NCBI GenBank assembly: GCA_963701855.1
Contig: CAVPBK010000004.1
Location: forward strand, 32,001 to 96,000
From: Nitrospirota bacterium
GTDB lineage: Bacteria; Nitrospirota; Nitrospiria; Nitrospirales; Nitrospiraceae
DNA: 64,000 bases
Reading direction: 5' to 3'
Part shown: piece after piece, positions 51,615 through 62,427 of the stretch
Numbering within the stretch: the first letter of the stretch is position 1
Layout of the letters: every line of letters begins with the position of its first letter
The notes under the pieces: model-generated
Seen by the model: the letters and a program-made list of their open reading frames with translations, nothing else
Database searches by the model: none
Told to the model about the DNA's origin: nothing
Made by a program: the position numbers and the translations under genes

Positions 51615-51989
51615 ATGAAAACATGGATCATCATCGCCGTCTTATCGCTGGGACTCTTCACAGCCTGGCCAACCACCGCCACGCCGCCGTACACCGCCAT
51701 CATCATCGATAGCGGGTCACCCTATTTCGTCCCGAAGTCAGCCACCGTGTCCAGCGGAGCCCCCATCAGATGGAACAACCCCACAGCCACCGAACACACG
51801 ATCACCCATGTGGGCTGTTTAGAAGGCGGAACGGTCTGCGCATTCGATTCCGGAATCGTCCGGCCAAACGGCAGCTTTACACTTCCAGGGTTGGCTCCCG
51901 GTCACTACCCCTACCTCTGCCGCATCCATCCCATCATGCACGGAATCATTACCGTAACCGATGTAGCTACGTTCCCCTCCCAGCTCTAG
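51615..51989 (+). CDS. Cupredoxin (plastocyanin/amicyanin-like) periplasmic protein
   Basis: Signal peptide, HTIT..YLCRIHPIMHG type-1 copper ligands H/C/H/M. Confidence 0.88.
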   Translation: MKTWIIIAVLSLGLFTAWPTTATPPYTAIIIDSGSPYFVPKSATVSSGAPIRWNNPTATEHTITHVGCLEGGTVCAFDSGIVRPNGSFTLPGLAPGHYPYLCRIHPIMHGIITVTDVATFPSQL

Positions 51990-52378
51990 CAGGATGCTGA
52001 AAAATGGGCGGGCCTGGCCGTCCTCCTGCTCACGGAACGCGCACAATAAGGATAAGAATGTGCTCGTTCGACGCGCGCAATCGAGGGTCGACCAGGTTAC
52101 CCTTAAAAATGAAATGAGGAATTGGGAAGACGCGCGAAGTTGGGATCATCCCAGCCCCCTTGGCAAAGTAATAGTTCGCTGCAGCCTTGCATGGGATAAG
52201 GCGCGTCCTTGGGCGAAGAGGCTGTCTTGGCAGACTCAGGGCGGTAGGGTGCAGTAGTCGCCAGGGCCGGACAGGTGAGAAGTCTGGCCTTGTTGAGCAT
52301 CCTGCGGGAGTGTGCTCCTGGTGTGCCACTGTGCAGCCACTGAAGCACCTGCCAACATAGTTTTTCGCAGGATACTAG
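51989..52378. mobile_element. Family A shell containing a family B hairpin
   Basis: gcaggatgctgaaaaa (51989) ... ttgttgagcatcctgc (52305), outer end tttttcgcaggatactag; family B unit at 52006-52102. Confidence 0.75.
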
Positions 52379-52387
52379 AACCCGTCG

Positions 52388-52475
52388 TTCGTCTGTCTGG
52401 TCCCTCTGGTCTATTTCGTCTATCTCGTCTGGTACCAGACAGACCAGAGAGACCGGGCAACAACGCGACAGACCA
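52388..52475. repeat. 9-bp-periodic palindrome (family D)
   Basis: cgtctgtct ggtccctct ggtctattt cgtctatct ... taccagaca gaccagaga. Confidence 0.75.
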
Positions 52476-52558
52476 AAATACCGCTTCACATCCTTCAGGC
52501 CTTGCGAGAATCCCAGCCCCCCGTGTAGGCTGCGGCACTTAACCAAGTCACGCCAATC

Positions 52559-54049
52559 ATGAAGCCAGCTGTCGCCGCTCACGCACCACTCAGTCTCACC
52601 GGGGAAATGCTCAGCCTGCTGGCCTGGCACATCCCCGACCTTGTCGTCTACCAGCACAATCGAGACGAATGGTGGTTCGCCCCCCTCGATGACAGCCTGC
52701 CGATCGTGCGCCTGAATCGCACCGGCCTGGAAATGTTACAGGCGATGAACGGCCACACGACAGTGGGTGCACTGGTGGAAAAATACGGGACACAGGTCTG
52801 CGGACCGGACGGACAGCCGGGACAATGGCATTTGGAACATTGGTCTCTGCCCACCTATTCCCTCTGTTACTACGGTATCGAGCCCCCGGGCGGCCATCGC
52901 CACAAAGCCAAGTGGGATCTACTCCTCCAGCAAGTCAGGGAAGGCTGGTCGGGACAGGATGGATTTGAGGGAGAAGAGCATCTTGAAGACTTTCATCACC
53001 ACGAATTGACCGACAGCGGTGAAGACGACGGCCATTTCGACCTGATCGAAACCACCGTTTCACATCTCTTCCGGGAGCCGAACGACGCGCTCAACGGCCT
53101 GACCTATGGCCGGCTGCTCATGCGACAATTCCGGAAGCTAGGCTGGTTCACGCCCAAACCCCACATCATCGTGGAAGTGGGTGGCGGGCTTGGATACCTC
53201 GCCCGTGAGTTGGGCAAGGAACTCTTGCCGTTTGAAAAGCAAACCATCCGGTACATTTCCCTCGATATCACACAACCCTTCCTCAACCTGCAAGTTAGCC
53301 GCGCCAAGGCCGGAGGCTGGAGCGGCATTGGCACACGCGCCAACGGCGAATGGCTGCCTTTCAAAAGTAACTCCGTCGACCTCGTCATCGACAACGAGAA
53401 CATGGCAGACATGACGCCGGTGAAATTGACCAGGAAAGAACTCCTCGATGGAACAGGCGATACGCCGCAACATCAGGAAGCGTTGGACTGGATCAGGCGC
53501 GTACGGCTGCCGCTAAGCACGAACCTGCCCGAGGACGTGATTTTCAATCTCGGCCCCTTTCGATTCGTAGCAGAACTATGGCGAGTGTTGAAGCCAGGCG
53601 GAAGAGCCTTTCTCACCGAATTCGGAATCGAGGAAGGCTGGCCGGCGCCAGTCAAGCTACCAGGCCACACGGAGTACGAGGTTCAATACAGCCACCTGCG
53701 GCAGGCCGTGCGCTGGCTGGGCTTTCAAGAACGCTATCTCTCGCTGCCTCAGTTCCTCGCCATCAAACCGGACAACAAAGTGCTCTGCACCGGCGCGGCC
53801 TATACCATTCAACGATTCTGCCAGACCATGAACAAGCCCTTCATCGTGCGAGCCTACACAGAGAAGGAATTGCAGCAGGCCCTGGGCGACATGCTCCCGA
53901 AACTCCATGGCTGCCATTACCACGACGTGGTAGACCCTGCCTGGTTCGGCCTCCTCGACTTCAAAGTCTTGTTACTGGAGAAGCCCGGTGGGGCTCCGAA
54001 AGCTAGCTTCTCGGAGAACAAAGGCTATCGGTGGTATTCGCAGAAGTAG
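52559..54049 (+). CDS. Class I SAM-dependent methyltransferase with N-terminal PqqD/RRE-like domain
   Basis: VEVGGGLG, LPFKSNSVDLVI, RVLKPGG; N-terminal 'RLNRTGLEMLQAMNGHTTVGALVEKY'. Confidence 0.78.
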   Translation: MKPAVAAHAPLSLTGEMLSLLAWHIPDLVVYQHNRDEWWFAPLDDSLPIVRLNRTGLEMLQAMNGHTTVGALVEKYGTQVCGPDGQPGQWHLEHWSLPTYSLCYYGIEPPGGHRHKAKWDLLLQQVREGWSGQDGFEGEEHLEDFHHHELTDSGEDDGHFDLIETTVSHLFREPNDALNGLTYGRLLMRQFRKLGWFTPKPHIIVEVGGGLGYLARELGKELLPFEKQTIRYISLDITQPFLNLQVSRAKAGGWSGIGTRANGEWLPFKSNSVDLVIDNENMADMTPVKLTRKELLDGTGDTPQHQEALDWIRRVRLPLSTNLPEDVIFNLGPFRFVAELWRVLKPGGRAFLTEFGIEEGWPAPVKLPGHTEYEVQYSHLRQAVRWLGFQERYLSLPQFLAIKPDNKVLCTGAAYTIQRFCQTMNKPFIVRAYTEKELQQALGDMLPKLHGCHYHDVVDPAWFGLLDFKVLLLEKPGGAPKASFSENKGYRWYSQK

Positions 54050-54158
54050 GGGTAAGGGGGCAAGGGGTAAAGATTCGTTCGGATCGCCCGCTTTCACCAA
54101 GGAGCGGGCGACGTCAGTGCCCTTATGAACACAAAACCAAGTCCCAAGAATCAAAACA

Positions 54159-55376
54159 CTACGGAGTCTTCGCGCAGCGGAACCCGGTGCCGAAGCCCTG
54201 GAACGACGGCAAATGGGTCTCCCGATCCGAGGAGCGCAGGTCAGTGATACCGTTGCTGCCCCATGAGCCGCCACGGATCACTTTGTATTCGCCCTTTGAC
54301 GGTCCCGTCGGGTTCTTCAACGGGCTGGTCTTGTAATAGCCCTGGTCATACCAATCGGCGACCCATTCCCAGACATTCCCGGCCATGTCATAGACGCCAT
54401 AGGGGCTCTTGCCCTCTTCAAACGTCCCCACCGGCGTTAATGCCGAATGGTTGCTCCAGACCTCTTTCCCCGAGTTCGCGTGAAACCTCGTCGGAGGCTC
54501 ATTCCCCCAGGGATAGATTCTGCCATCTGTCCCCCGCGCCGCCTTCTCCCACTCCGCCTCGGTCACCAGGCGTTTGCCGGCCCATTTGCAGTAGGCATCC
54601 GCTTCCGCCCAATTCACATTGGCGACGGGGCGATTCTGATTGTACGGTTTGTTCATGACAGTCCAGTCCGCCGGTCTTTCATGGTGGGTGGCTTCCAAGA
54701 ACCTCGCATATTGCGCCACCACCACTTGGTGCTTATCCATGAAAAAGGCATCCACATAGACTTTGTGCACCGGGAGTTCGTCTGGATCTCCCCCCGAACT
54801 CCCCATCATGAACTCCCCCGCCGGCACCCGCACCATCGACCGGTCTGGAAGAGGAGCCACCGCCATCCTCCCGTTACTCCGTGTATGCCTCTGCTGAATC
54901 TTCTCCTGCAACTGCCGGTAGAGGGCCTGTTGTTCGTCGTCAAGACCTAGCTTGTTCACAATATCCAGGGTGTCCTCGGCCTGGGCGACCATATCGGGTG
55001 AGGCATTCGGCTCGTTGATGGCCTGCTTCCCTTCGTCCAGCAAGCGCCAGACTTTGGCCTTGCGCCCCCGTTGTTTGGCCAAACCGGCCACCGAGGACTT
55101 CGCATCAAGCTCCAGCGAGGTCTCATAATGCTCTTCCGCACAGGCCCAGGCTTTCAGACCCCGGCAGGCATCGCCAAGATAGAAGTGCGCCAGGGCATTG
55201 GCAGGGTATTGTTCAAGGCCGGCTTCAAAGGCCGTGCGTGCCTCCTGGTACTTGTGTTGTTTTAGGAAATTGTAACCAGCGTTAAATTTCTTGGCACGCT
55301 CATCAAAGAGTGCCGCAGCCATCGTCGGGTCGATATCGAGCCCAAGTAACACGACGAGTGCAAGGATCTTTCTCAT
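54159..55376 (-). CDS. Secreted TPR + formylglycine-generating-enzyme-like (SUMF1) domain protein
   Basis: AGEFMMGS, RLVTEAEWEKAARG, DMAGNVWEW, RGGSW, GFRC; N-terminal TPRs; FGE catalytic Cys pair not seen. Confidence 0.88.
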   Translation of the reverse strand: MRKILALVVLLGLDIDPTMAAALFDERAKKFNAGYNFLKQHKYQEARTAFEAGLEQYPANALAHFYLGDACRGLKAWACAEEHYETSLELDAKSSVAGLAKQRGRKAKVWRLLDEGKQAINEPNASPDMVAQAEDTLDIVNKLGLDDEQQALYRQLQEKIQQRHTRSNGRMAVAPLPDRSMVRVPAGEFMMGSSGGDPDELPVHKVYVDAFFMDKHQVVVAQYARFLEATHHERPADWTVMNKPYNQNRPVANVNWAEADAYCKWAGKRLVTEAEWEKAARGTDGRIYPWGNEPPTRFHANSGKEVWSNHSALTPVGTFEEGKSPYGVYDMAGNVWEWVADWYDQGYYKTSPLKNPTGPSKGEYKVIRGGSWGSNGITDLRSSDRETHLPSFQGFGTGFRCAKTP

Positions 55377-55488
55377 AAACTACCTCCTCGTTCGGTAGAA
55401 GAGACGATAACACCCTGTCCTTTACGGCTTGATAGATGGGAAAACTATATACCTGGTGCAAAAAAAACACAACCGGACAGGGAGGAGA

Positions 55489-55670
55489 GGATGGAGCCTG
55501 TTGATCTCCTGTGCTCGCGCAACGCGCACGATAAGAATGTGCTCGTTCGACGCGCGCAGTAGGAGATCAATCAGCCCCCATCCCTGAAAGAGAACAAGCG
55601 AGCTTGGATGGATCATTTAGATGGATAACGGACGCTCGATCTATGCAGTGAAGGGCGGCTTGGTCACCCT
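55489..55670. repeat. Family B hairpin with residual outer arm
   Basis: ggatgg..ttgatctcct-gtgctcgcgcaacgcgcacgataagaatgtgctcgttcgacgcgcgcagt-aggagatcaa..ccatcc. Confidence 0.85.
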
Positions 55671-55900
55671 TCTGAGAGAGTAGACGGGGAGTGCACAGAA
55701 AGAAATTGTTCGATTGAAAGACGAGATGTACGATTGTACGGCCTGACTCTGACTGTCCTCGTGGTATGAGCGCTGATTAGCTTTCCGCAACAATCATCGT
55801 GATATTTTAGTTCCGATCGTCTTAGATAGGACACAAGGGGATTATTCAGACAAACCGGGCAGACGTCTTGAACTCCACGAAAGCATGGTTAATAAATCTT

Positions 55901-55917
55901 ACGGCAGGTTTCTTGCT
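55901..55917 (+). promoter_or_regulatory. Possible sigma-54 -24/-12 promoter
   Basis: CGGCAGGTTTCTTGCT (GG-N10-GC, GGCA..TTGC) about 70 bp upstream of ATG 55988. Confidence 0.45.
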
Positions 55918-55987
55918 GAACGATATGACTAGCCCGGCGTGATTCTTTGGGCGGAGGATGTAATTCTCACTTAATGAGGCACGACCC

Positions 55988-56386
55988 ATGAAAACCCGCT
56001 TCAACATTCTGAGGATTATTTTTCTTACTGTTGCGTTGGCATTGATTCATACCGACAGAACTTTCGCTGCCTCCACTTTCGCAGGCAAGAGTGCCGGCGT
56101 CTTCTCTTTACAGGAGAATACCGGCACTGGTGTGACTACACTGCCTCTCACACCCTCTACCGGCTCAGTCTTCCGCGATGTGCCAGCACTCAGTGGACGC
56201 TACACTGCTGGGAGCATGACATTTCTTCCGTATATCGGCGCAGGCTTTGGCGCAGGCTATAATTCCGAACTCGACCGTACGTTCGCGCCGAATTTGCAGC
56301 CTCAACATAGCTTGAATGCCGGCGGTCTGCAGGGCCAAGGCATGGTTCCGAATGAATTCCAAATGGGAATCCGAATCCCGTTTTAG
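55988..56386 (+). CDS. Small secreted protein with OMP-like motifs
   Basis: Signal peptide, PYIGAGFG, C-terminal FQMGIRIPF (beta-signal-like); GAGG RBS. Confidence 0.7.
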   Translation: MKTRFNILRIIFLTVALALIHTDRTFAASTFAGKSAGVFSLQENTGTGVTTLPLTPSTGSVFRDVPALSGRYTAGSMTFLPYIGAGFGAGYNSELDRTFAPNLQPQHSLNAGGLQGQGMVPNEFQMGIRIPF

Positions 56387-56489
56387 GAACCTGAGCCGGC
56401 AAACATCTGGACATCAGATTCTTAGGAAAATAAACCCCTACTTCTTGACCGGCCAATCGTCAACCTATTGCTACTCGAAAAATAAAAGA

Positions 56490-56875
56490 ACAGGGTGGCA
56501 GGGCCAGTCCCTGTGCTCCCGGAACGCGCACGACCAGAATGTGCTCGTTCGACGGCCGCAGTCGGAACGAGCCCTGCCACCCTGTAATGAGAGAGTGGAA
56601 GATAGGAAAACAGGTTGACCGAGGCTTCCTGCCGCGCAACGCGCGGCCTAGGAAGGATGAGGAGGGAGCGGCCAGATGCCCTCCTTGCTCGCAGAACGCG
56701 CACGATAAGAATGTGCTCGTTCGATGCGCGCAGTAGAGGGCAGCCTTGGCCACTCCCTCGAAGTGATGTAGAGAGAGGGAGGGAAGGAGACCCTCACGCG
56801 CGCAGTGAAGGGCAATCTGGTCACCCTGCTTAGGAGAGGATAAGGAAGAATGATCGGACTGAACGCTCGGTCAAT
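56490..56875. repeat. Family B cluster: single unit (56490-56585) plus nested unit (outer 56611-56828, inner 56662-56759)
   Basis: Shared core AACGCGC..TCGTTCGA..CGCAGT with different complementary arms. Confidence 0.85.
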
Positions 56876-56950
56876 ATACCAGATGGGATTGCTCAGTTCA
56901 GAAAAGTAGAATATCCCCGTTAATTCACCCAAAAATAAACTATTTCAGGG

Positions 56951-57146
56951 TTACGCCTTCACCTGAAGCATCTGCGTAGGGACATCGTTCAACGCGAGCA
57001 ATCGTTGATCATTGGTGAGCAGGGTTGCTTCCAGAGTCAGCGCCGTCGCAGCGACAATGGCGTCAGGAAGCTTCAGCCAGAATCGTTTCCGAAGATTCAC
57101 TGCGTGGTGCTTGATTGGTATCGAGAACAAAGCGGGCCACCGTCAC
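56951..57146 (-). pseudogene. VapC/PIN toxin remnant with internal deletion and frameshift
   Basis: GTG start overlaps the antitoxin stop; MTVARFVLDTN then frameshift to ..LKLPDAIVAATALTLEATLLTND..; central part missing. Confidence 0.8.
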
Positions 57147-57355
57147 GCCCACTCATCGCGCAAACGACGTTGGTACGCTACCGGGTCTTCCGACAAACGG
57201 ATCGAGCCCTCATGACGCCGAAGCTGCTCTATCCCATTGGCTCCAGCTGCACTCCCTAACTGTTGTTCGATGCGCAGCCAGTCTTCGTAGGGAATTAAGA
57301 CCCCGACGGGGCGCCCCTCTTCGTCAGTTACAAGCTGTTTGTGAATCGTGCTCAT
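57143..57355 (-). CDS. Putative antitoxin
   Basis: QLVTDEEGRPVGVLIPYEDW...DPVAYQRRLRDEW; directly upstream of the PIN remnant. Confidence 0.75.
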   Translation of the reverse strand: MSTIHKQLVTDEEGRPVGVLIPYEDWLRIEQQLGSAAGANGIEQLRRHEGSIRLSEDPVAYQRRLRDEWA

Positions 57356-57423
57356 CAAACCCTCGCACCAGTTGCCCATTATAGTCAATGGCGTGCAAAA
57401 GAGAAAGCTTAGGTTCGTTCCTG

Positions 57424-57506
57424 CCACAACGTGGCTGATTTTTCTTGGTTCGGCCTCATCGACTTCAAAGTCTTGTTATTGGAAAAGCGGGAGGAGCCCC
57501 GAAAGC
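57424..57506 (+). repeat. Degenerate duplicate of the 3' end of the 52559-54049 methyltransferase gene
   Basis: tggttcggcctcatcgacttcaaagtcttgttattgga vs tggttcggcctcctcgacttcaaagtcttgttactgga (53942-53979). Confidence 0.85.
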
Positions 57507-57514
57507 ACGGGGAA

Positions 57515-57714
57515 AGCAGGGCAGCCAGACTGCCCTTTGTGCTTGCGCAACGCGCGCCCTGAGAAGGGCCTCGTTCGACGGCCCCACGTAGACCAACATG
57601 GGTGCCCTTCCAAGAGAGGGAAAGCTCTCGTTGAACACGCGCAGTGAAGGGCAATCTGGTCGCCCTGCTAAGGAGAGGATAAGGAAGAAGGGTCGAACTG
57701 AACGCTCGATCAAT
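57515..57714. repeat. Family B unit with partly deleted nested unit; tail repeats 56796-56875
   Basis: agcagggcagccagactgccctt ... aagggcaatctggtcgccctgct arms; tail aggagaggataaggaagaa..actgaacgctcg. Confidence 0.85.
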
Positions 57715-57729
57715 GTTCCCTTTTATTTC

Positions 57730-58197
57730 TTTTTGAGACGCCAATGTCTTTGAGGTGCTTATCTCTTTGTACTTCCACAGAGGCCACGGCCTGCTCCTTC
57801 AGCCGAATGAGCGACACCACTGATGCTAGCCGAACAGGGAGAACAGCTTCGCGTCTACTGCGTCCTCAGCGACTTCAGAATACGTTGGCCCATCTTTTTG
57901 GGAAGTAAGGAGTTCGGCGTAATAAAGCCGTTTCAACGGCACTTGCAGTCCAGGTTTTGTGAACGAATCGGAGTTGTAGCCGTTCATACGTAAACCGTCG
58001 AAGGCCCGAGAAATGCGTGCAGAATTCTCAGGCGTGGGGTTCACAGGAAGATCCATGTCATCCGCTTGACGGTCGGCGCAATACCAAGCGACTGCTAAAC
58101 CACCAATAACGACGAATTCCACACCGTTAGCCGTAAAGGCACGAACGAGTTCCTTATTAGCTTCGGTGTGGATGAGCGTGTCGCCAATCTTTTTCAT
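57730..58197 (-). pseudogene. Nucleotidyltransferase-family protein, frameshifted near 57840
   Basis: VVIGGLAVAWY..R.ADDMDL motif; a second frame continues PVRLASVVSLIRLKEQAV..RDKHLKDI past the annotated stop. Confidence 0.7.
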
Positions 58198-58303
58198 GCC
58201 GTATAACGTCCATGTTCAGGTACGTACCACTTCGCGTAATGGGTTGCGGGTCAAGTCTTGCGACCAAATATTTCTAGCGTCTAGTCATTCGATGACTTCT
58301 CAG

Positions 58304-59251
58304 TCATCGTGTCCTCGTCGCCAGTTCAATCAACACTCCTTCCCGCAATCCCAGATCGCTGACGAGCACCGTCGACATCCCCAAGGTCTCCATCACCGTC
58401 CGGATGATGATCGCGCCGGCGGCTATGACTTCTTCGCGGCCTTTTTCTAGGCCTTGCAGGCCGATACGGTCGGTTTTCTTGCGGCTCAGGAGCGTTTGTT
58501 CGAGATCTTGAATGGTATTGAGCTGCAATCTGTAGTTATGGATTCTAGCTGGCTCGTAAGTGGGAAGTTTCTGCGCCATGGCGGCTAGACTGGTGACGGT
58601 TCCGGCTGTGCCGACGAAGGTTGCCGTGTGATAGTTGCCCATACCGGCGACCACCGCTTTGGTTTCTTTCACGATCCACTCGCGTGCCTGGCTCACTTCT
58701 TCGTCGGTCGGAGGGTCGTGATGTAAGAGCCGCTCACAAAGCCTGACGACGCCTACATCTATTGAGCACACATTCGGGTTCTGACCTGGACTATCTAGAA
58801 TGAACTCGGTACTGCCGCCGCCGATGTCTAGGGCCAGCACGTCGGTCACACCGTGGGGTAAGCCGGAGCGGATACCCAGCATTGCCCGCCTGGCTTCTTC
58901 TTCTCCCGATATCAGTTCAACTTCGAAGCCTGCTTCGCGTTTCACGCGATCGAGAAACTCTTCGCGGTTCACTGCATCACGCACGGCACTTGTCGCGACA
59001 GCTACCGTGGCATCGGCATGGGAGGCATCAATAAGCGCTTGCCACTCACTGAGGCACTGCACCACCCGATCCATCGCGGCAACGCTTAGATGCTTGGTCT
59101 GATCGACGCCCTCGCCTAGCCGAAGAATCCGTCGCTCGGATCGTACTTCTATCAGCCGGCCATCGGATGGTACGTCTGCAATGAGCAATCGGCAGGTGAG
59201 CGTGCCGATATCGACGCCGGCGAGACGCATCATACGTGACGAGTCGCTCAT
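58304..59251 (-). CDS. ppx: Ppx/GppA family phosphatase
   Basis: GVDIGT, ATSAVRDA, ISGEEEA, DIGGGSTE, GLREG. Confidence 0.92.
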   Translation of the reverse strand: MSDSSRMMRLAGVDIGTLTCRLLIADVPSDGRLIEVRSERRILRLGEGVDQTKHLSVAAMDRVVQCLSEWQALIDASHADATVAVATSAVRDAVNREEFLDRVKREAGFEVELISGEEEARRAMLGIRSGLPHGVTDVLALDIGGGSTEFILDSPGQNPNVCSIDVGVVRLCERLLHHDPPTDEEVSQAREWIVKETKAVVAGMGNYHTATFVGTAGTVTSLAAMAQKLPTYEPARIHNYRLQLNTIQDLEQTLLSRKKTDRIGLQGLEKGREEVIAAGAIIIRTVMETLGMSTVLVSDLGLREGVLIELATRTR

Positions 59252-59571
59252 AATTCGGTCCGAATCTCCGTCATGTCCGATTCAAGCTTCTCGCGTGCGC
59301 CTTTGAGGTCTTGGATCTCTTGGACGAGTCGACCGATTTCGGCATCGTACAGAATCCGTTCAGCCGGTTCGCCTACTTCATGAAGATGAACCGCCCGCTC
59401 ACCGACATCCCGGTATAACTCATCCAATTGCTGTTCGAGCTTGCGGATATCGAGCCGGATCCGCAGCAGTTCCGTTTCTTCCAACGCACGGATCGCCGCC
59501 TGCGCCGTACCATGGCGCAGCGTCGCCAACCCCGCCTTCATGTCATGCTTCAACCGTTGCAATAATCCCAT
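59248..59571 (-). CDS. Hypothetical coiled-coil protein
   Basis: AGGAG RBS, helical heptads, coupled to ppx. Confidence 0.75.
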   Translation of the reverse strand: MGLLQRLKHDMKAGLATLRHGTAQAAIRALEETELLRIRLDIRKLEQQLDELYRDVGERAVHLHEVGEPAERILYDAEIGRLVQEIQDLKGAREKLESDMTEIRTEL

Positions 59572-59652
59572 TTTCTCCTAGCTCTCCCCACTCTCCACTC
59601 CACCCGGCGAGGGATGCATGGACTAGCATCTTCACTCTCACCACCTCTCCAT

Positions 59653-59870
59653 GGGAGTGGCTAGGCTGCCCTCGCTGCGCGCATCAATAATCCTTCCAAG
59701 CTCGCTTGCTTTCCCTCTCTTGGAAGGGCACTCATGTTGGTCTACGTGCGGCCGTCGAACGAGGCCCTTCTTAGGGCGCGCGTTCCGGGAGCACAGGATC
59801 AACGTGGGTGTCCTTCCAATCCCTTTCATCGTGCGCGTTCTGCGAGCAAAGAGGGCACCTGGCCGCTCCC
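59653..59870 (-). repeat. Family B nested unit (inverted orientation)
   Basis: Minus strand: outer arms gggagcggccaggtgccctc / gagggcagcctagccactccc, inner arms ttggaaggacacccacgttgatc / gaccaacatgagtgcccttccaa. Confidence 0.85.
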
Positions 59871-59874
59871 CCCC

Positions 59875-62427
59875 TCAACTCACCGACCCCAAATCCAATT
59901 TCGATTTCCACCGCCGCAGCATCGTCTCTCGCAAGGCACGATACACCGGCGCATTCAGTTGTGGGTCCTGCTTCAAAAGCGCGAAAGCCTCCTGCCGCGC
60001 CTGCTGAAGCAGATCGGCATCCCGCACCAGGTTCGCGGCGCGAAACTCCGGCATGCCCCACTGCCGAAATCCAAAAAACTCACCAGGCCCACGAATGCGG
60101 AGATCTTCCTCAGCGATCACAAACCCGTCGGTCGACCGTACGAGCGCGTCCAGCCGCTCTCGGGCCGCCGATGGCTGTTCGCCGGCTGCTTTGGGCTTCG
60201 CCGATCGAAACAGCACTCCGCCCGAGGCCATCAGCAGACAATAGGACTGGTGTCCGCTTCGTCCAACGCGTCCGCGCAATTGGTGTAACTGCGCCAGCCC
60301 GAATCGCTCGGCATGCTCGATCATCATGACTGTGGCATTGGGCACATCCACCCCGACCTCCACCACCGTCGTCGAGACCAGAACCTGGACATCCCCCTTC
60401 TTATACGATGTCATGACCCGTTCTTTCTCTTCCGACTTCATCCGGCCATGCACAAGCCCGACGCGAAACTCAGCCAACTCCTCAGCTTGTAACTGTTCAG
60501 CGCCTTGCATGGCCGCTTGCAGATCGGTCTTCTCTGATTCCTCGACCAACGGATACACCACATAGGCCTGCCGGCCACTCCGCAGTTCGTCGCGGAGGAT
60601 CTGATAGGCCCGCCCACGTTGGCCGTCGCTTAAGAGAAATGTCCTCACCGGCTTTCGCCCCGGCGGCATCTGGTCGATCACCGAAACATCCAGATCCCCA
60701 TACACCGTCATGGCCAGCGTGCGTGGAATTGGTGTCGCAGTCAGCACCAGCACATCGGGCTTATAGCCTTTCTCGATGAGCGTCTTCCGTTGGAGAACGC
60801 CAAATCGATGTTGCTCATCCACCACCGCCAAGCCAAGTTTCGCGAAGGTGACGCCTTGCTGAATGATCGCATGGGTCCCAATCACGACTTGTGCAGTCCC
60901 TGAGGCCACCTGTCCGAGAATGGCTTTACGCGCTGCGGCGCGACCACCACCGCTCACGAGCACCACGGAAAGCCCGAGCGGTTCCAACAGACTTTTCATC
61001 GTCCGATAGTGTTGCTCGGCAAGAATTTCCGTCGGCGCCATCAATGCCGCCTGATAGCCCGATCCACAGGCCAGCACCATCGCCTGCACCGCCACGATGG
61101 TTTTGCCGGACCCGACATCGCCCTGCACTAGACGGTTCATCGGTTTGCGCGACGTCATGTCCGACAGAATCTCGCGGATCACCCGTGCTTGCGCCTCGGT
61201 CAACTGAAAAGGCAGTGCCCGGTCCAGCTTGCCGAGAAGTGGTGTCTTCGGATTGAACGACACCTGCTTGACCTCTTCCTTCATCACTCGTTGTCGCGAC
61301 GCCAAAGCGAGTTGGAGCACAAACAGTTCTTCGAACGCCAAGCGACGATGCGCCGGCGTGAGACCTCGATCGAGCTGTCCTCCATCCGTTCCTGACTGTG
61401 GAAAATGCACATCCTGAATGGCTTGTTGAATGGGCAGCAACCGATAGCGAGCACGAAGCGGAACCGGCAACACCTCCTGCGCCTCGGCAGCATGCACGTC
61501 CAGTAAACCTTTCATCAATGCGCGCATCTGCCGGGACGTCCACCCCTTGGTTTCGTGGTATACCGGAACGATCCGCCCCACGTGCAGCGGCGCTTCGGCT
61601 TCCACTCCCACCACTTCGTATTGCGCCACCTCCATCCTCGTAGCCACCCACCCCTGCGCGCCGGCCACCACCCGCCCGGTCAGCATGACGCTCGTCCCGA
61701 CGGTGAAAAGCTGTTCCAGAAACGGCTGATTAAAGAACACCGACTGGAGACGCCCGGTTGAATCCTCCACCACAATGTCGAGGATGGTGAGGCGGCGATT
61801 GCGGGCTCGTTTCGCCTCGCTTCGGACGATCGTGCCGCAGATCGAAGCCTGCACACCTGGCACCAGTTGCCCTATCGGGGTCATGACCGAGCGATCCTCA
61901 TAGCGCCAAGGGAGGGTCCATAGGGCATCCTCAACCGTCTCGATACCGAACCGTTGCAGCAGCAATGCGCGCTTCGGGCCGACTCCCTTCGCGAAACGAA
62001 TGGGCTGCTCCCACCATGCACGCGATGGGGTGTCGTTCATGGCAGGCACAGGCACTGCGATAGGCTCCGGCTCCTGCCAGTCCCTAGCCGAATCGTGAAC
62101 GGCCTTGCGCAAGACTCCAAGAATGACCGTGGCTTCCTGCAGCCGGCGCTGCTGGTCTTCTGCCGGGAGCCGCTGCTGGTCTTCAGGAAATAGCTCACGC
62201 AGCTGGAGCAACGCCGCTTCAATCGCTCGTGGATAGACGCGATCCGACAGGGCCTGCATCACCTGTGAGGAGACGAAACGATTCAGATTCTTGACGGTGG
62301 GCAGATGTGCGAACGCATCGCGTGTCGCGAATTCGATCGGACGCGCGACACGGTTCAGCCATTGCTGAAACTGTTCAGGGGGGTTGGGCTCGGAAGAGCG
62401 CCGTATCACAGTGGCGGATCGTATCAT
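59875..62427 (-). CDS. recG: ATP-dependent DNA helicase RecG (N-terminally extended)
   Basis: QGDVGSGKT, MAPTEILAEQH, DEQHRFG, TATPIPRT, QLHQLRGRVGR, DLRIRGPGE. Confidence 0.96.
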   Translation of the reverse strand: MIRSATVIRRSSEPNPPEQFQQWLNRVARPIEFATRDAFAHLPTVKNLNRFVSSQVMQALSDRVYPRAIEAALLQLRELFPEDQQRLPAEDQQRRLQEATVILGVLRKAVHDSARDWQEPEPIAVPVPAMNDTPSRAWWEQPIRFAKGVGPKRALLLQRFGIETVEDALWTLPWRYEDRSVMTPIGQLVPGVQASICGTIVRSEAKRARNRRLTILDIVVEDSTGRLQSVFFNQPFLEQLFTVGTSVMLTGRVVAGAQGWVATRMEVAQYEVVGVEAEAPLHVGRIVPVYHETKGWTSRQMRALMKGLLDVHAAEAQEVLPVPLRARYRLLPIQQAIQDVHFPQSGTDGGQLDRGLTPAHRRLAFEELFVLQLALASRQRVMKEEVKQVSFNPKTPLLGKLDRALPFQLTEAQARVIREILSDMTSRKPMNRLVQGDVGSGKTIVAVQAMVLACGSGYQAALMAPTEILAEQHYRTMKSLLEPLGLSVVLVSGGGRAAARKAILGQVASGTAQVVIGTHAIIQQGVTFAKLGLAVVDEQHRFGVLQRKTLIEKGYKPDVLVLTATPIPRTLAMTVYGDLDVSVIDQMPPGRKPVRTFLLSDGQRGRAYQILRDELRSGRQAYVVYPLVEESEKTDLQAAMQGAEQLQAEELAEFRVGLVHGRMKSEEKERVMTSYKKGDVQVLVSTTVVEVGVDVPNATVMMIEHAERFGLAQLHQLRGRVGRSGHQSYCLLMASGGVLFRSAKPKAAGEQPSAARERLDALVRSTDGFVIAEEDLRIRGPGEFFGFRQWGMPEFRAANLVRDADLLQQARQEAFALLKQDPQLNAPVYRALRETMLRRWKSKLDLGSVS

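Follow-up and report, generated by a model that had tools for sequence, protein, structure and literature searches.

A genus-wide family of self-nesting, mismatched hairpin repeats in Nitrospira and its likeness to REP/REPIN-type selfish DNA

ERIC (IRU) sequences, Correia (NEMIS) elements and BIME mosaics are intergenic palindromes of about 100–150 nt that often lie in transcribed spacers. Their ends are conserved, with a TA duplication in Correia and ERIC, and internal insertion sites give rise to longer variants and to mosaics with other motifs. The repeats of the REP/REPIN-RAYT systems of Escherichia and Pseudomonas are high-copy, intergenic, imperfect palindromes of about 100 nt that are strand-polar, form subfamilies within one genome and are inherited vertically across a genus. 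These REP/REPIN features are shared by the repeat family characterized here, which was found in a 64,000-nucleotide stretch (the window, G000:C4:32001–96000) of the Nitrospirota genome G000 (4.30 Mb, 15 contigs, 55.5% G+C). G000 and the relatives with which it was compared are metagenome-derived. The units of the family are imperfect hairpins with a conserved, mismatched core, and they lie inside one another's apices in one orientation only. On balance, the family is probably selfish, non-autonomous hairpin DNA of the REP/REPIN kind that was spread by loop-seeking, strand-specific insertion and is now reshuffled by recombination.

A repeat search and direct reading of the window region 51900–60000 were used to evaluate six loci that a preliminary description, made from the sequence of the window, had taken for copies of one repeat family. 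A covariance model (R1), built from 39 other G000 copies and used on the window and on the genomes of relatives, matched all six on the strands first given for them, with E-values from 8e-18 to 1.6e-31. The core consists of TGCTC-N4-AACGCGC, a 14-nt apex and CTCGTT(C/G)GA-YGCGCGCAG, and is enclosed by arms of about 22 nt each that differ among copies yet are complementary within a copy. The whole unit is a hairpin of about 100 nt followed, 3' of the right arm, by a purine-rich tail of 25–40 nt that has no partner on the left; the tail usually ends in ..GAGCTTGGA(A/G)GG and sometimes continues for about ten more conserved bases. The claimed core and both of its mismatches (T.C and C.T) were present. 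The T of TGCTC and its partner C were invariant in 39 of 39 diverse copies (alignment A1, with less than 80% mutual identity, chosen from 112 simple full copies and none dropped), and T.C (93 of 112 copies) and C.T (89 of 112) were the commonest 1x1 loops in folds of the 112 copies. Two apex classes, GCAC..GTGC and GGCC/GCCC..GGCC/GGGC, were found, as had been described. The invariant columns of A1 all lie within the central core, and the outer arms have no column above 70–90%; this high conservation of the centre is partly a matter of ascertainment, because copies were found via the core.

Covariation in A1 bore out the claims that the arms vary yet remain complementary and that structure is retained while arm sequence changes. 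When a 35-pair hairpin was written by hand, 29 of the 35 pairs were changed on both sides, a value that none of 500 shuffles attained. The proportion of paired cells was 80.7%, compared with 68.2% in shuffled alignments and 37–47% when partners were slid, and there were 216 compensatory cells vs. 91 in the shuffles, the observed values again being reached in 0 of 500; these numbers overstate significance because relatedness is not removed by the shuffle control. The slid controls, in which relatedness is retained, were still far below the observed pairing. RNAalifold alone gave 19 pairs, 16 of them with compensatory changes. Compensation extended to the core: at pair 45/73, 24 copies had G-C and 11 had C-G, and at pair 47/71, 29 had A-U and 8 had G-C. 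The unit is polar, since R1 scored 65–109 bits on the top strand of the window loci and only 16–20 bits on the reverse strand. The two strands also differ in folding: the bottom-strand hairpin was the more stable in 107 of the 112 copies (mean 3.5 kcal/mol, DNA parameters), and the top strand had 245 G-U pairs vs. 98 A.C 1x1 loops. Subfamilies have both arms and tail in common, and therefore whole units (arms, core and tail) were copied.

The family is far above chance expectation in G000. A strict regular expression for the left core gave 130 matches, and an nhmmer profile built on 85 simple copies gave 206 hits at E<1e-3, spread over 13 of the 15 contigs; of these, 137 were full, 35 were left halves, 22 were right halves and 12 were partial. 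Forty-four of the 137 full copies fell inside open reading frames (ORFs) of a crude, longest-ORF gene calling, and such ORFs are probably spurious. R1 detected the family in all 24 genomes of the same genus that were searched, with at least 91 matches in 13 of them and 26 in the lowest. The sister family yielded 1–7 weak hits in each of five genomes, and two further families of the order yielded none in six and five genomes, respectively. When one genome per species was scanned with an exact pattern, at least 132 stretches matched; among the 80 matches listed, which include Ca. Nitrospira defluvii and N. lenta, all but two were titled Nitrospira, Nitrospiraceae, Nitrospirales or Nitrospirota, the exceptions being one Angustibacter metagenome-assembled genome and one "bacterium" record. 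A viral contig collection had no exact pattern match, and thus no phage carriage was seen. The family is old, genus-wide and high-copy in Nitrospira. A description of it was not found in open full text (subscription journals were outside this coverage), and the available passages of PMC6006769, PMC12306157 and PMC12542641 list the taxon only or concern other contigs.

The copies in the window and their parts are the following.

51990–52378: composite block of 389 nt that holds copy 1, with CTAG at either end
51994–52112, plus strand: hairpin copy 1 (R1, 65.4 bits), with arms gggcgggcctggccgtcctcc and ggagggtcgaccaggttaccc and a GCAC..GTGC-type apex that has a 6-nt extra insert
about 52131–52160: orphan right half of another copy, after copy 1
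55478–55591, plus strand: hairpin copy 2 (R1, 109.3 bits), with arms ggatggagcctgttgatctcc and ggagatcaatcagcccccatcc and then a tail ending in ..GAGCTTGGATGG (to about 55612)
about 55632–55676: orphan right half of another copy, after the tail of copy 2
56480–56592, plus strand: hairpin copy 3 (R1, 93.2 bits), with arms acagggtggcagggccagtccc and ggaacgagccctgccaccctgt; inverted repeat I14 with 22-nt arms
56611–56656, plus strand: left half of an outer (host) copy, ending in the apex ..GGCCTAGGAAGG, as read from the sequence
56657–56787, plus strand: complete inner copy, a hairpin (56657–56760) plus a tail of about 27 nt (R1 at 56653–56765, 104 bits)
56788–56828, plus strand: right half of the outer copy, agaccctc-ACGCGCGCAG-tgaagggcaatctggtcaccctg, with the core GTTGG missing
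57506–57675, plus strand: outer copy with its own apex replaced (R1, 67.3 bits over 170 nt) by parts of a different copy, namely its apex, right half and tail (about 57557–57619); outer right half at 57620–57669
59653–59875, minus strand: nested pair (R1 on the inner unit, 59715–59827, 77.2 bits), made up of an outer left half (59824–59875), an inner copy (59715–59827) with tail, and an outer right half (about 59653–59700)

A full unit lies within the apex of another at 56611–56828 and at 59653–59875, as had been proposed; the junctions were read directly and R1 matched both inner units. The inner copy at 56657–56787 begins directly after GGAAGG of the host apex and closes with a second GGAAGG (56782–56787), and the 85-nt stretch from 56788 recurs at 57635–57719 (direct repeat D2, 89% identical). 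At 59653–59875, nhmmer gave a full hit (C4:91720–91817) and a left half (C4:91824–91875). The insert at 57506–57675 is an incomplete unit, and nhmmer found a full hit (C4:89512–89612) and a separate right-half hit (C4:89620–89669).

Nesting of complete units recurs across G000, where 20 left halves end at model positions 55–60 (apex ..GAAGG) with a full copy within 12 nt. The unit lands in the apex of its own kind, and all 20 nested cases were co-oriented and none opposite, although 20 nested cases do not amount to 20 independent events because composites may be copied as units. They span several different host and insert subfamilies. Neighbouring hits less than 300 nt apart were on the same strand in 65 of 65 pairs. 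At the junctions, the host runs to ..(G/A)GAAGG, the insert starts with (A/G)TG(G/A)G.. and ends with ..GGAAGG, and the host continues with CCCTCG; GGAGGG, AGAGG and GAAG also occurred as insert ends, so the bracket is inexact in some cases. After many copies comes an orphan right half, derived from another copy and starting just before CTCG, the host apex being lost.

Other palindromes also serve as hosts. Twenty-four of the 137 full copies were located in the centre of an abundant palindromic repeat with the ends CAGGATGCT(G/C)AAAAA, and in two comparisons with the close relative G015 (cases 7 and 35) the centre of this repeat in G015 was swapped for a hairpin unit in the G000 orthologue. 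The common theme is landing at the apex of an extrudable hairpin. A second, smaller insert of about 46–52 nt, composed of a GC hairpin and GGGCGGGTGAGAA, was found after the CTCG of the host, and in one orthologous copy (case 34) it was polymorphic between G000 and G015. In that comparison (locus L207 of G015 vs. G000:C4:161001–161092), a 46-nt mini-insert made of a GC hairpin (GCGCGTCTTGGCGCGC) and GGGCGGGTGAAAA splits CTCG from CGATG of the core in G015 and is missing from G000; the module also occurs within numerous nested copies and in the CAGGATGCT(G/C)AAAAA family. A model in which the core alone is the mobile unit and the arms are its target was rejected, as no arm pair joined without a core was found. 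The 74 distinct left-arm 12-mers of G000 were followed by the core in 123 occurrences, and the 104 other occurrences were variant, interrupted or reverse-strand element copies or matches to unrelated sequence.

The CAGGATGCT(G/C)AAAAA family is the more abundant of the two, with 458 end matches (at most two mismatches) in G000 and 141 end pairs less than 1500 nt apart, 65 of them 100–130 nt long. Its ends are mostly flanked by CTAG, TTAG or TAA-like words and were seen in the window at 51990–52004 and 52295–52310; its centre is itself a hairpin and a frequent landing place of the hairpin family. Two left halves (G000:C9:431417–431468 and C11:117021–117069) were broken at the apex by a small repeat, ggttgaggctcaggctgag..cctcaacctcgacc, that also adjoins ends of the CAGGATGCT family.

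Comparison of 409 kb of G015 with G000, between which flanks are about 96.5% identical, listed 43 indels of at least 60 nt. Both flanks could be mapped in G015 for 23 of the G000 clusters; the span was kept to within 5 nt in 14 of these and differed in nine, and all nine differences were swaps or inserts inside other repeats. The window loci illustrate this turnover. The block at 51990–52378 is present in G000 and G015, and copy 1 has an orthologue in G015; the block is missing from G090, where CTCTAG/AACCCG is uninterrupted. Its parts are one repeat end, hairpin copy 1, the orphan right half, a GC-hairpin module, the second repeat end and a further stretch of about 70 nt. Site 55478 has a different arrangement in each of G000, G015 and G090 (three in all), copy 3 is missing at the matching place in G015, and the locus at 57506 is represented there by a collapsed version in which the arms are joined via TGTGCTCGCGCAA. 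The nested pair at 59653–59875, located between the recG stop and the next gene on the same strand, is kept in G015. Two of 11 orthologous copies of equal span (C1:47083 and C1:153494) were reverse-complemented in G015 between unchanged flanks: nhmmer assigned them to the opposite strand, and reverse-complement alignment scored 88 vs. 61 and 73 vs. 51. The asymmetric inner arm bases were swapped as well, which places the break within the symmetric outer arms. Assembly choice may underlie such flips in metagenome-derived genomes, but the arms, at about 25 nt, are shorter than usual assembly words. Most present-day change is recombination at hairpins, in the form of swaps, chimeras, deletions and flips, and not new jumps.

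Orientation of the copies is related to replication. By the usual convention, the G-rich strand carries the sequence of the lagging-strand template. With the G-rich strand of G000 set by 100-kb skew windows (|skew| of at least 0.02), the top strand of the core was on the G-rich strand in 92 copies vs. 34 (Fisher p = 1.4e-5), or 60 vs. 27 when clusters were collapsed; the bias of genes to that strand was weaker (1825 vs. 1222). In G093, a genome of two contigs whose skew was sampled in twenty 20-kb pieces, 53 of 73 model hits, counted by hand, were co-oriented with the G-rich strand and 20 were not, and the switches in orientation near 0.45 Mb and about 1.8–2.3 Mb match the skew changes only roughly. 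In both genomes, about 73% of the copies have the top strand on the G-rich strand. The top strand, which tends to be the G-rich one, is the weaker folder, and hence the strand that becomes exposed at the fork folds less well; this fits either a model in which that strand is the active one or selection against stable hairpins there. The preliminary description had suggested a single-stranded DNA (ssDNA) hairpin substrate, and this suggestion is consistent with the orientation bias and with strictly one-way nesting; the principle that IS608-type elements act as ssDNA on the lagging-strand template is stated in the abstract of PMC6006769.

Dispersed units with shared arms and tails, one-way landing and the replichore bias together point to selfish DNA with a strand-specific, loop-seeking spread in the past. 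Whole units of arms, core and tail would have multiplied together, and insertion would recognise G(A/G)AGG, a purine motif left single-stranded in the loop when a hairpin is extruded, the target loop being either the apex of the unit's own kind or the centre of another palindromic repeat. Insertion in one orientation only points to an ssDNA step at the replication fork, similar to that of IS200/IS605 or REP/REPIN elements. Since then, apices have been replaced, arms made chimeric, short deletions formed between repeated cores and whole hairpins flipped.

Several observations, in addition to the possible copying of composites as units, weigh against this reading. No clean filled and empty site in unique DNA was found among the 23 clusters compared between G000 and G015. 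Nearest-neighbour identity among 112 copies, taken over about 136 nt, was 85% at the median and 96% at most, with no pair at 98% or above; judged from these values the copies are old, and the values give no evidence of current mobility. The bracket of GAAGG might stem from duplication of the target or belong to the element itself, and the replichore bias need not record the strand of insertion because copies flip in place. Conserved words are found at the hairpin ends of REP/REPIN elements, whereas here the centre is conserved and the ends are variable, and MITEs (miniature inverted-repeat transposable elements) likewise have the opposite pattern of conservation.

The search for a mover also belongs on this side of the balance, as no enzyme was found among the Y1/HUH and integron integrase searches. 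The loci taken in were four Y1 (PF01797) loci of G000, 30 from the genus and 18 more of a longer class. Three of the G000 loci are IS200 copies (NF033573, 131 bits), whose end hairpins (ccccgtagcttgctacgggg-type) are unrelated to the core. The fourth encodes a RAYT-like product of 229 aa (NF047646, 73.6 bits vs. a cut-off of 80, which it does not reach) and is flanked by its own REP-like word, present in 14 copies in G000. None of the four had a core motif within 900 nt or an R1 match in the extracted loci (L001–L004). A longer class of about 200–370 aa, Y1 with a C-terminal helix-turn-helix (HTH) domain, was detected in other genomes (two read through, 279 and 283 aa), and seven of 25 such loci had a hairpin within 1.5–2.5 kb of flank on each side, upstream and co-oriented in six of the seven. 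Hairpin density near these loci was about 1 per 13 kb vs. 1 per 31 kb genome-wide, or about twice the background, and the longer class is a weak lead as mover. Both sides were flanked by the motif at 0 of 29 Y1 loci (four in G000 and 25 of the longer class); the preliminary description had proposed looking for a RAYT/HUH gene so flanked, and RAYT or IS200 was rejected as mover on this result and on a density only about twice background. PF01797 was detected in 44 of 85 genomes of the genus and in 25 of 47 high-quality ones, and Y1/HUH genes are missing from the other 41 of the 85. Hairpin-rich, near-complete genomes without Y1 include G001, G003, G004, G011, G017, G019, G022 and G023, of which G001 (99% complete) has 86 matches and no Y1 gene.

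The RAYT-like gene (L004:1189–1878, on G000:C11) is flanked by inverted copies of a small stem-loop word, GGTGTCAGGAACAG (14 copies with at most one mismatch), and about 200 nt of its 3' end are tandemly duplicated. A gene-less mini version consisting of the two ends only adjoins a hairpin copy at G000:C15:27043–27118. The longer-Y1 loci include L249:1254–2304, L281:2103–2847, L246, L250, L244 and L282.

The lack of an enzyme extends to the surroundings of the window loci. Eleven ORFs scanned at 50–62 kb (methyltransferase-like, FGE-sulfatase/TPR, RelB-like, Ppx/GppA, RecG and others without assignment) included no recombinase or transposase, in agreement with the earlier statement that the window has no cognate enzyme. 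The methyltransferase-like gene of 496 aa ends in a 65-nt stretch (53920–53984) that recurs with 83% identity at 57424–57488, just upstream of the hairpin at 57506; this repeat, also found in G015, is probably the remnant of a paralogue. A small ORF on the minus strand (57143–57427), located between two hairpin loci, encodes a RelB-like antitoxin domain (27.9 bits, cut-off 27).

Among the other explanations, we consider it possible, if doubtful, that the family is a new kind of hairpin-loop-seeking ssDNA parasite. In such a system, the mismatched apical core would be recognised and the unit would insert one way into the exposed loop of any extruded hairpin, with a preference for its own kind; either a host fork protein or an enzyme other than a Y1/RAYT transposase or integron integrase would act as mover, and flips would sort the copies by replichore.

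Somewhat less likely, but a serious rival because the copies are old and no enzyme was found, is that there is no dedicated mover and that host handling of hairpins at the fork (template switching, cleavage and ectopic gene conversion) spreads and reshapes the family. On this view, a stable hairpin on the lagging-strand template would be selected against, and both the fixed mismatches and the strand bias would result from this; the more stable bottom hairpin and the location of the weaker top strand on the G-rich strand agree with such selection. Host processes would also account for orthologous sites with retained flanks and an exchanged interior (cases 7 and 35 and site 55478), for chimeric copies whose left and right arms belong to different subfamilies (L013, L017), for short deletions between repeated cores (G015, L200:5610–5685) and for flips in place. 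However, conversion swaps copies and cannot put more than 100 units with the same arms and tail at unrelated loci, and the precise, one-way nesting after GAAGG (20 to 0) looks site-specific. Correction by template switching should moreover remove the T.C and C.T mismatches, yet these are fixed.

A structured RNA, either a cis-acting stabiliser or processing element co-transcribed with its neighbours, as transcribed REP and ERIC repeats are, or a multi-copy small RNA, is improbable. The covariation supports a helix, copies between genes of the same direction were co-oriented with them in 42 cases vs. 12 (by the crude gene calls), and G-U pairs outnumber A.C loops on the top strand, but this G-U excess is equally explicable by a C-to-T bias on an exposed strand. 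Where the direction of such genes opposed the G-rich strand, 17 copies followed the strand and eight followed the genes, again by the crude calls. The 11 orthologous copies of equal span were 93.3% identical vs. 96.5% for their 200-nt flanks and gave no sign of extra constraint (purifying selection), two of them were flipped with their flanks unchanged, and nesting and half copies would ruin a fold. No Rfam family matched at the gathering score in the whole window, and at E of 10 or below over 55400–57800 only two chance-level snoRNA hits (E 6–7) appeared. A search of metatranscriptome runs gave small shares, 0.06–0.11, in four runs. The RNA alternative raised in the preliminary description gained no positive support.

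It is about equally unlikely that the family is an ordinary MITE that a DDE transposase moves in double-stranded form, with the arms as terminal inverted repeats and GAAGG as a 5-bp target duplication. In favour are the long inverted repeat that makes up the unit, the GAAGG or GGAAGG on either side of inserts, and the other MITE-like families and IS elements of G000. Against these points, variability is greatest at the outer ends and conservation is greatest in the centre, a tail of 25–40 nt after the right arm has no left partner, and the bracket is at times inexact (GGAAGG vs. GGAGGG, AGAGG or GAAG). Nesting is one-way (20 to 0, and 65 to 0 for neighbours), where duplex cut-and-paste would be expected to insert both ways. 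Last, attC-like recombination sites of an integron or related tyrosine-recombinase system are largely refuted and highly improbable, for although the copies are imperfect, polar hairpins with fixed unpaired bases and a core with AAC...GTT boxes, of which GTTGGAC fits what we take to be the box consensus (GTTRRRY), and although one small insert is polymorphic exactly after the CTCG of CTCG/TT (case 34), no integron integrase scored above cut-off (best TIGR02249, 80.8 bits vs. 265), the copies are dispersed over 13 contigs and both strands with no single array, the stem extends 30 bp past the boxes, and many copies have GTTCGA, which misfits the box.

In soils, waters and treatment plants, Nitrospira are the main nitrite oxidisers and complete ammonia oxidisers. 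Tens to more than 100 units are present in every genome searched; they break assemblies, yield spurious ORFs and mark hot spots of rearrangement, and a model of the family is therefore directly useful for annotation. The family represents a REP-like repeat without a RAYT partner that combines strict one-way landing in hairpin loops with flips in place. Any existing mover is probably of a type that has so far not been associated with repeats of this kind. If there is none, the family would be a bacterial case of hairpin repeats spread by host replication and repair alone, as already proposed for organelle palindromes.

The preliminary description had likened the element to REP/REPIN repeats or attC sites. 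The part of that comparison that concerns behaviour as an ssDNA hairpin fits, and membership in either system fails. In REP-RAYT systems, repeat and RAYT gene co-occur, whereas the hairpins were present in 24 of 24 genomes and PF01797 in 44 of 85. REPINs, to our knowledge, have not been described as nesting regularly at their own apex. An attC site is likewise a folded single strand with fixed unpaired bases and variable sequence; here, unlike attC, there is no IntI or cassette array and the conserved boxes lie in the middle of a longer stem. IS200/IS605 elements and their derivatives without an ORF (IS608, ISDra2 and PATEs) resemble the family in their imperfect hairpins of one strand, in one-way insertion beside a short word (here 20 of 20 after GAAGG) and in their bias to the lagging-strand template. 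This likeness is one of behaviour and is no proof of membership; IS200/IS605 elements have two separate subterminal hairpins without long arm pairing, unlike the hairpin family, and half of the hairpin-rich genomes are without a Y1 gene. In comparison with invertons, both orientations were seen at two of 11 orthologous sites, and the segment is only about 50–60 nt (two genomes). The palindromic or hairpin-forming repeats of organelles, such as sponge mitochondrial RHEs and Volvox palindromes, are regarded as selfish (PMC2800124; PMC2670323). They too are short hairpin repeats that invade intergenic DNA without a known enzyme; they belong to another domain of life and are unrelated in sequence. 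From ERIC and Correia elements, finally, the hairpin family differs in having variable ends, one-way nesting and a purine-word target in the loop.

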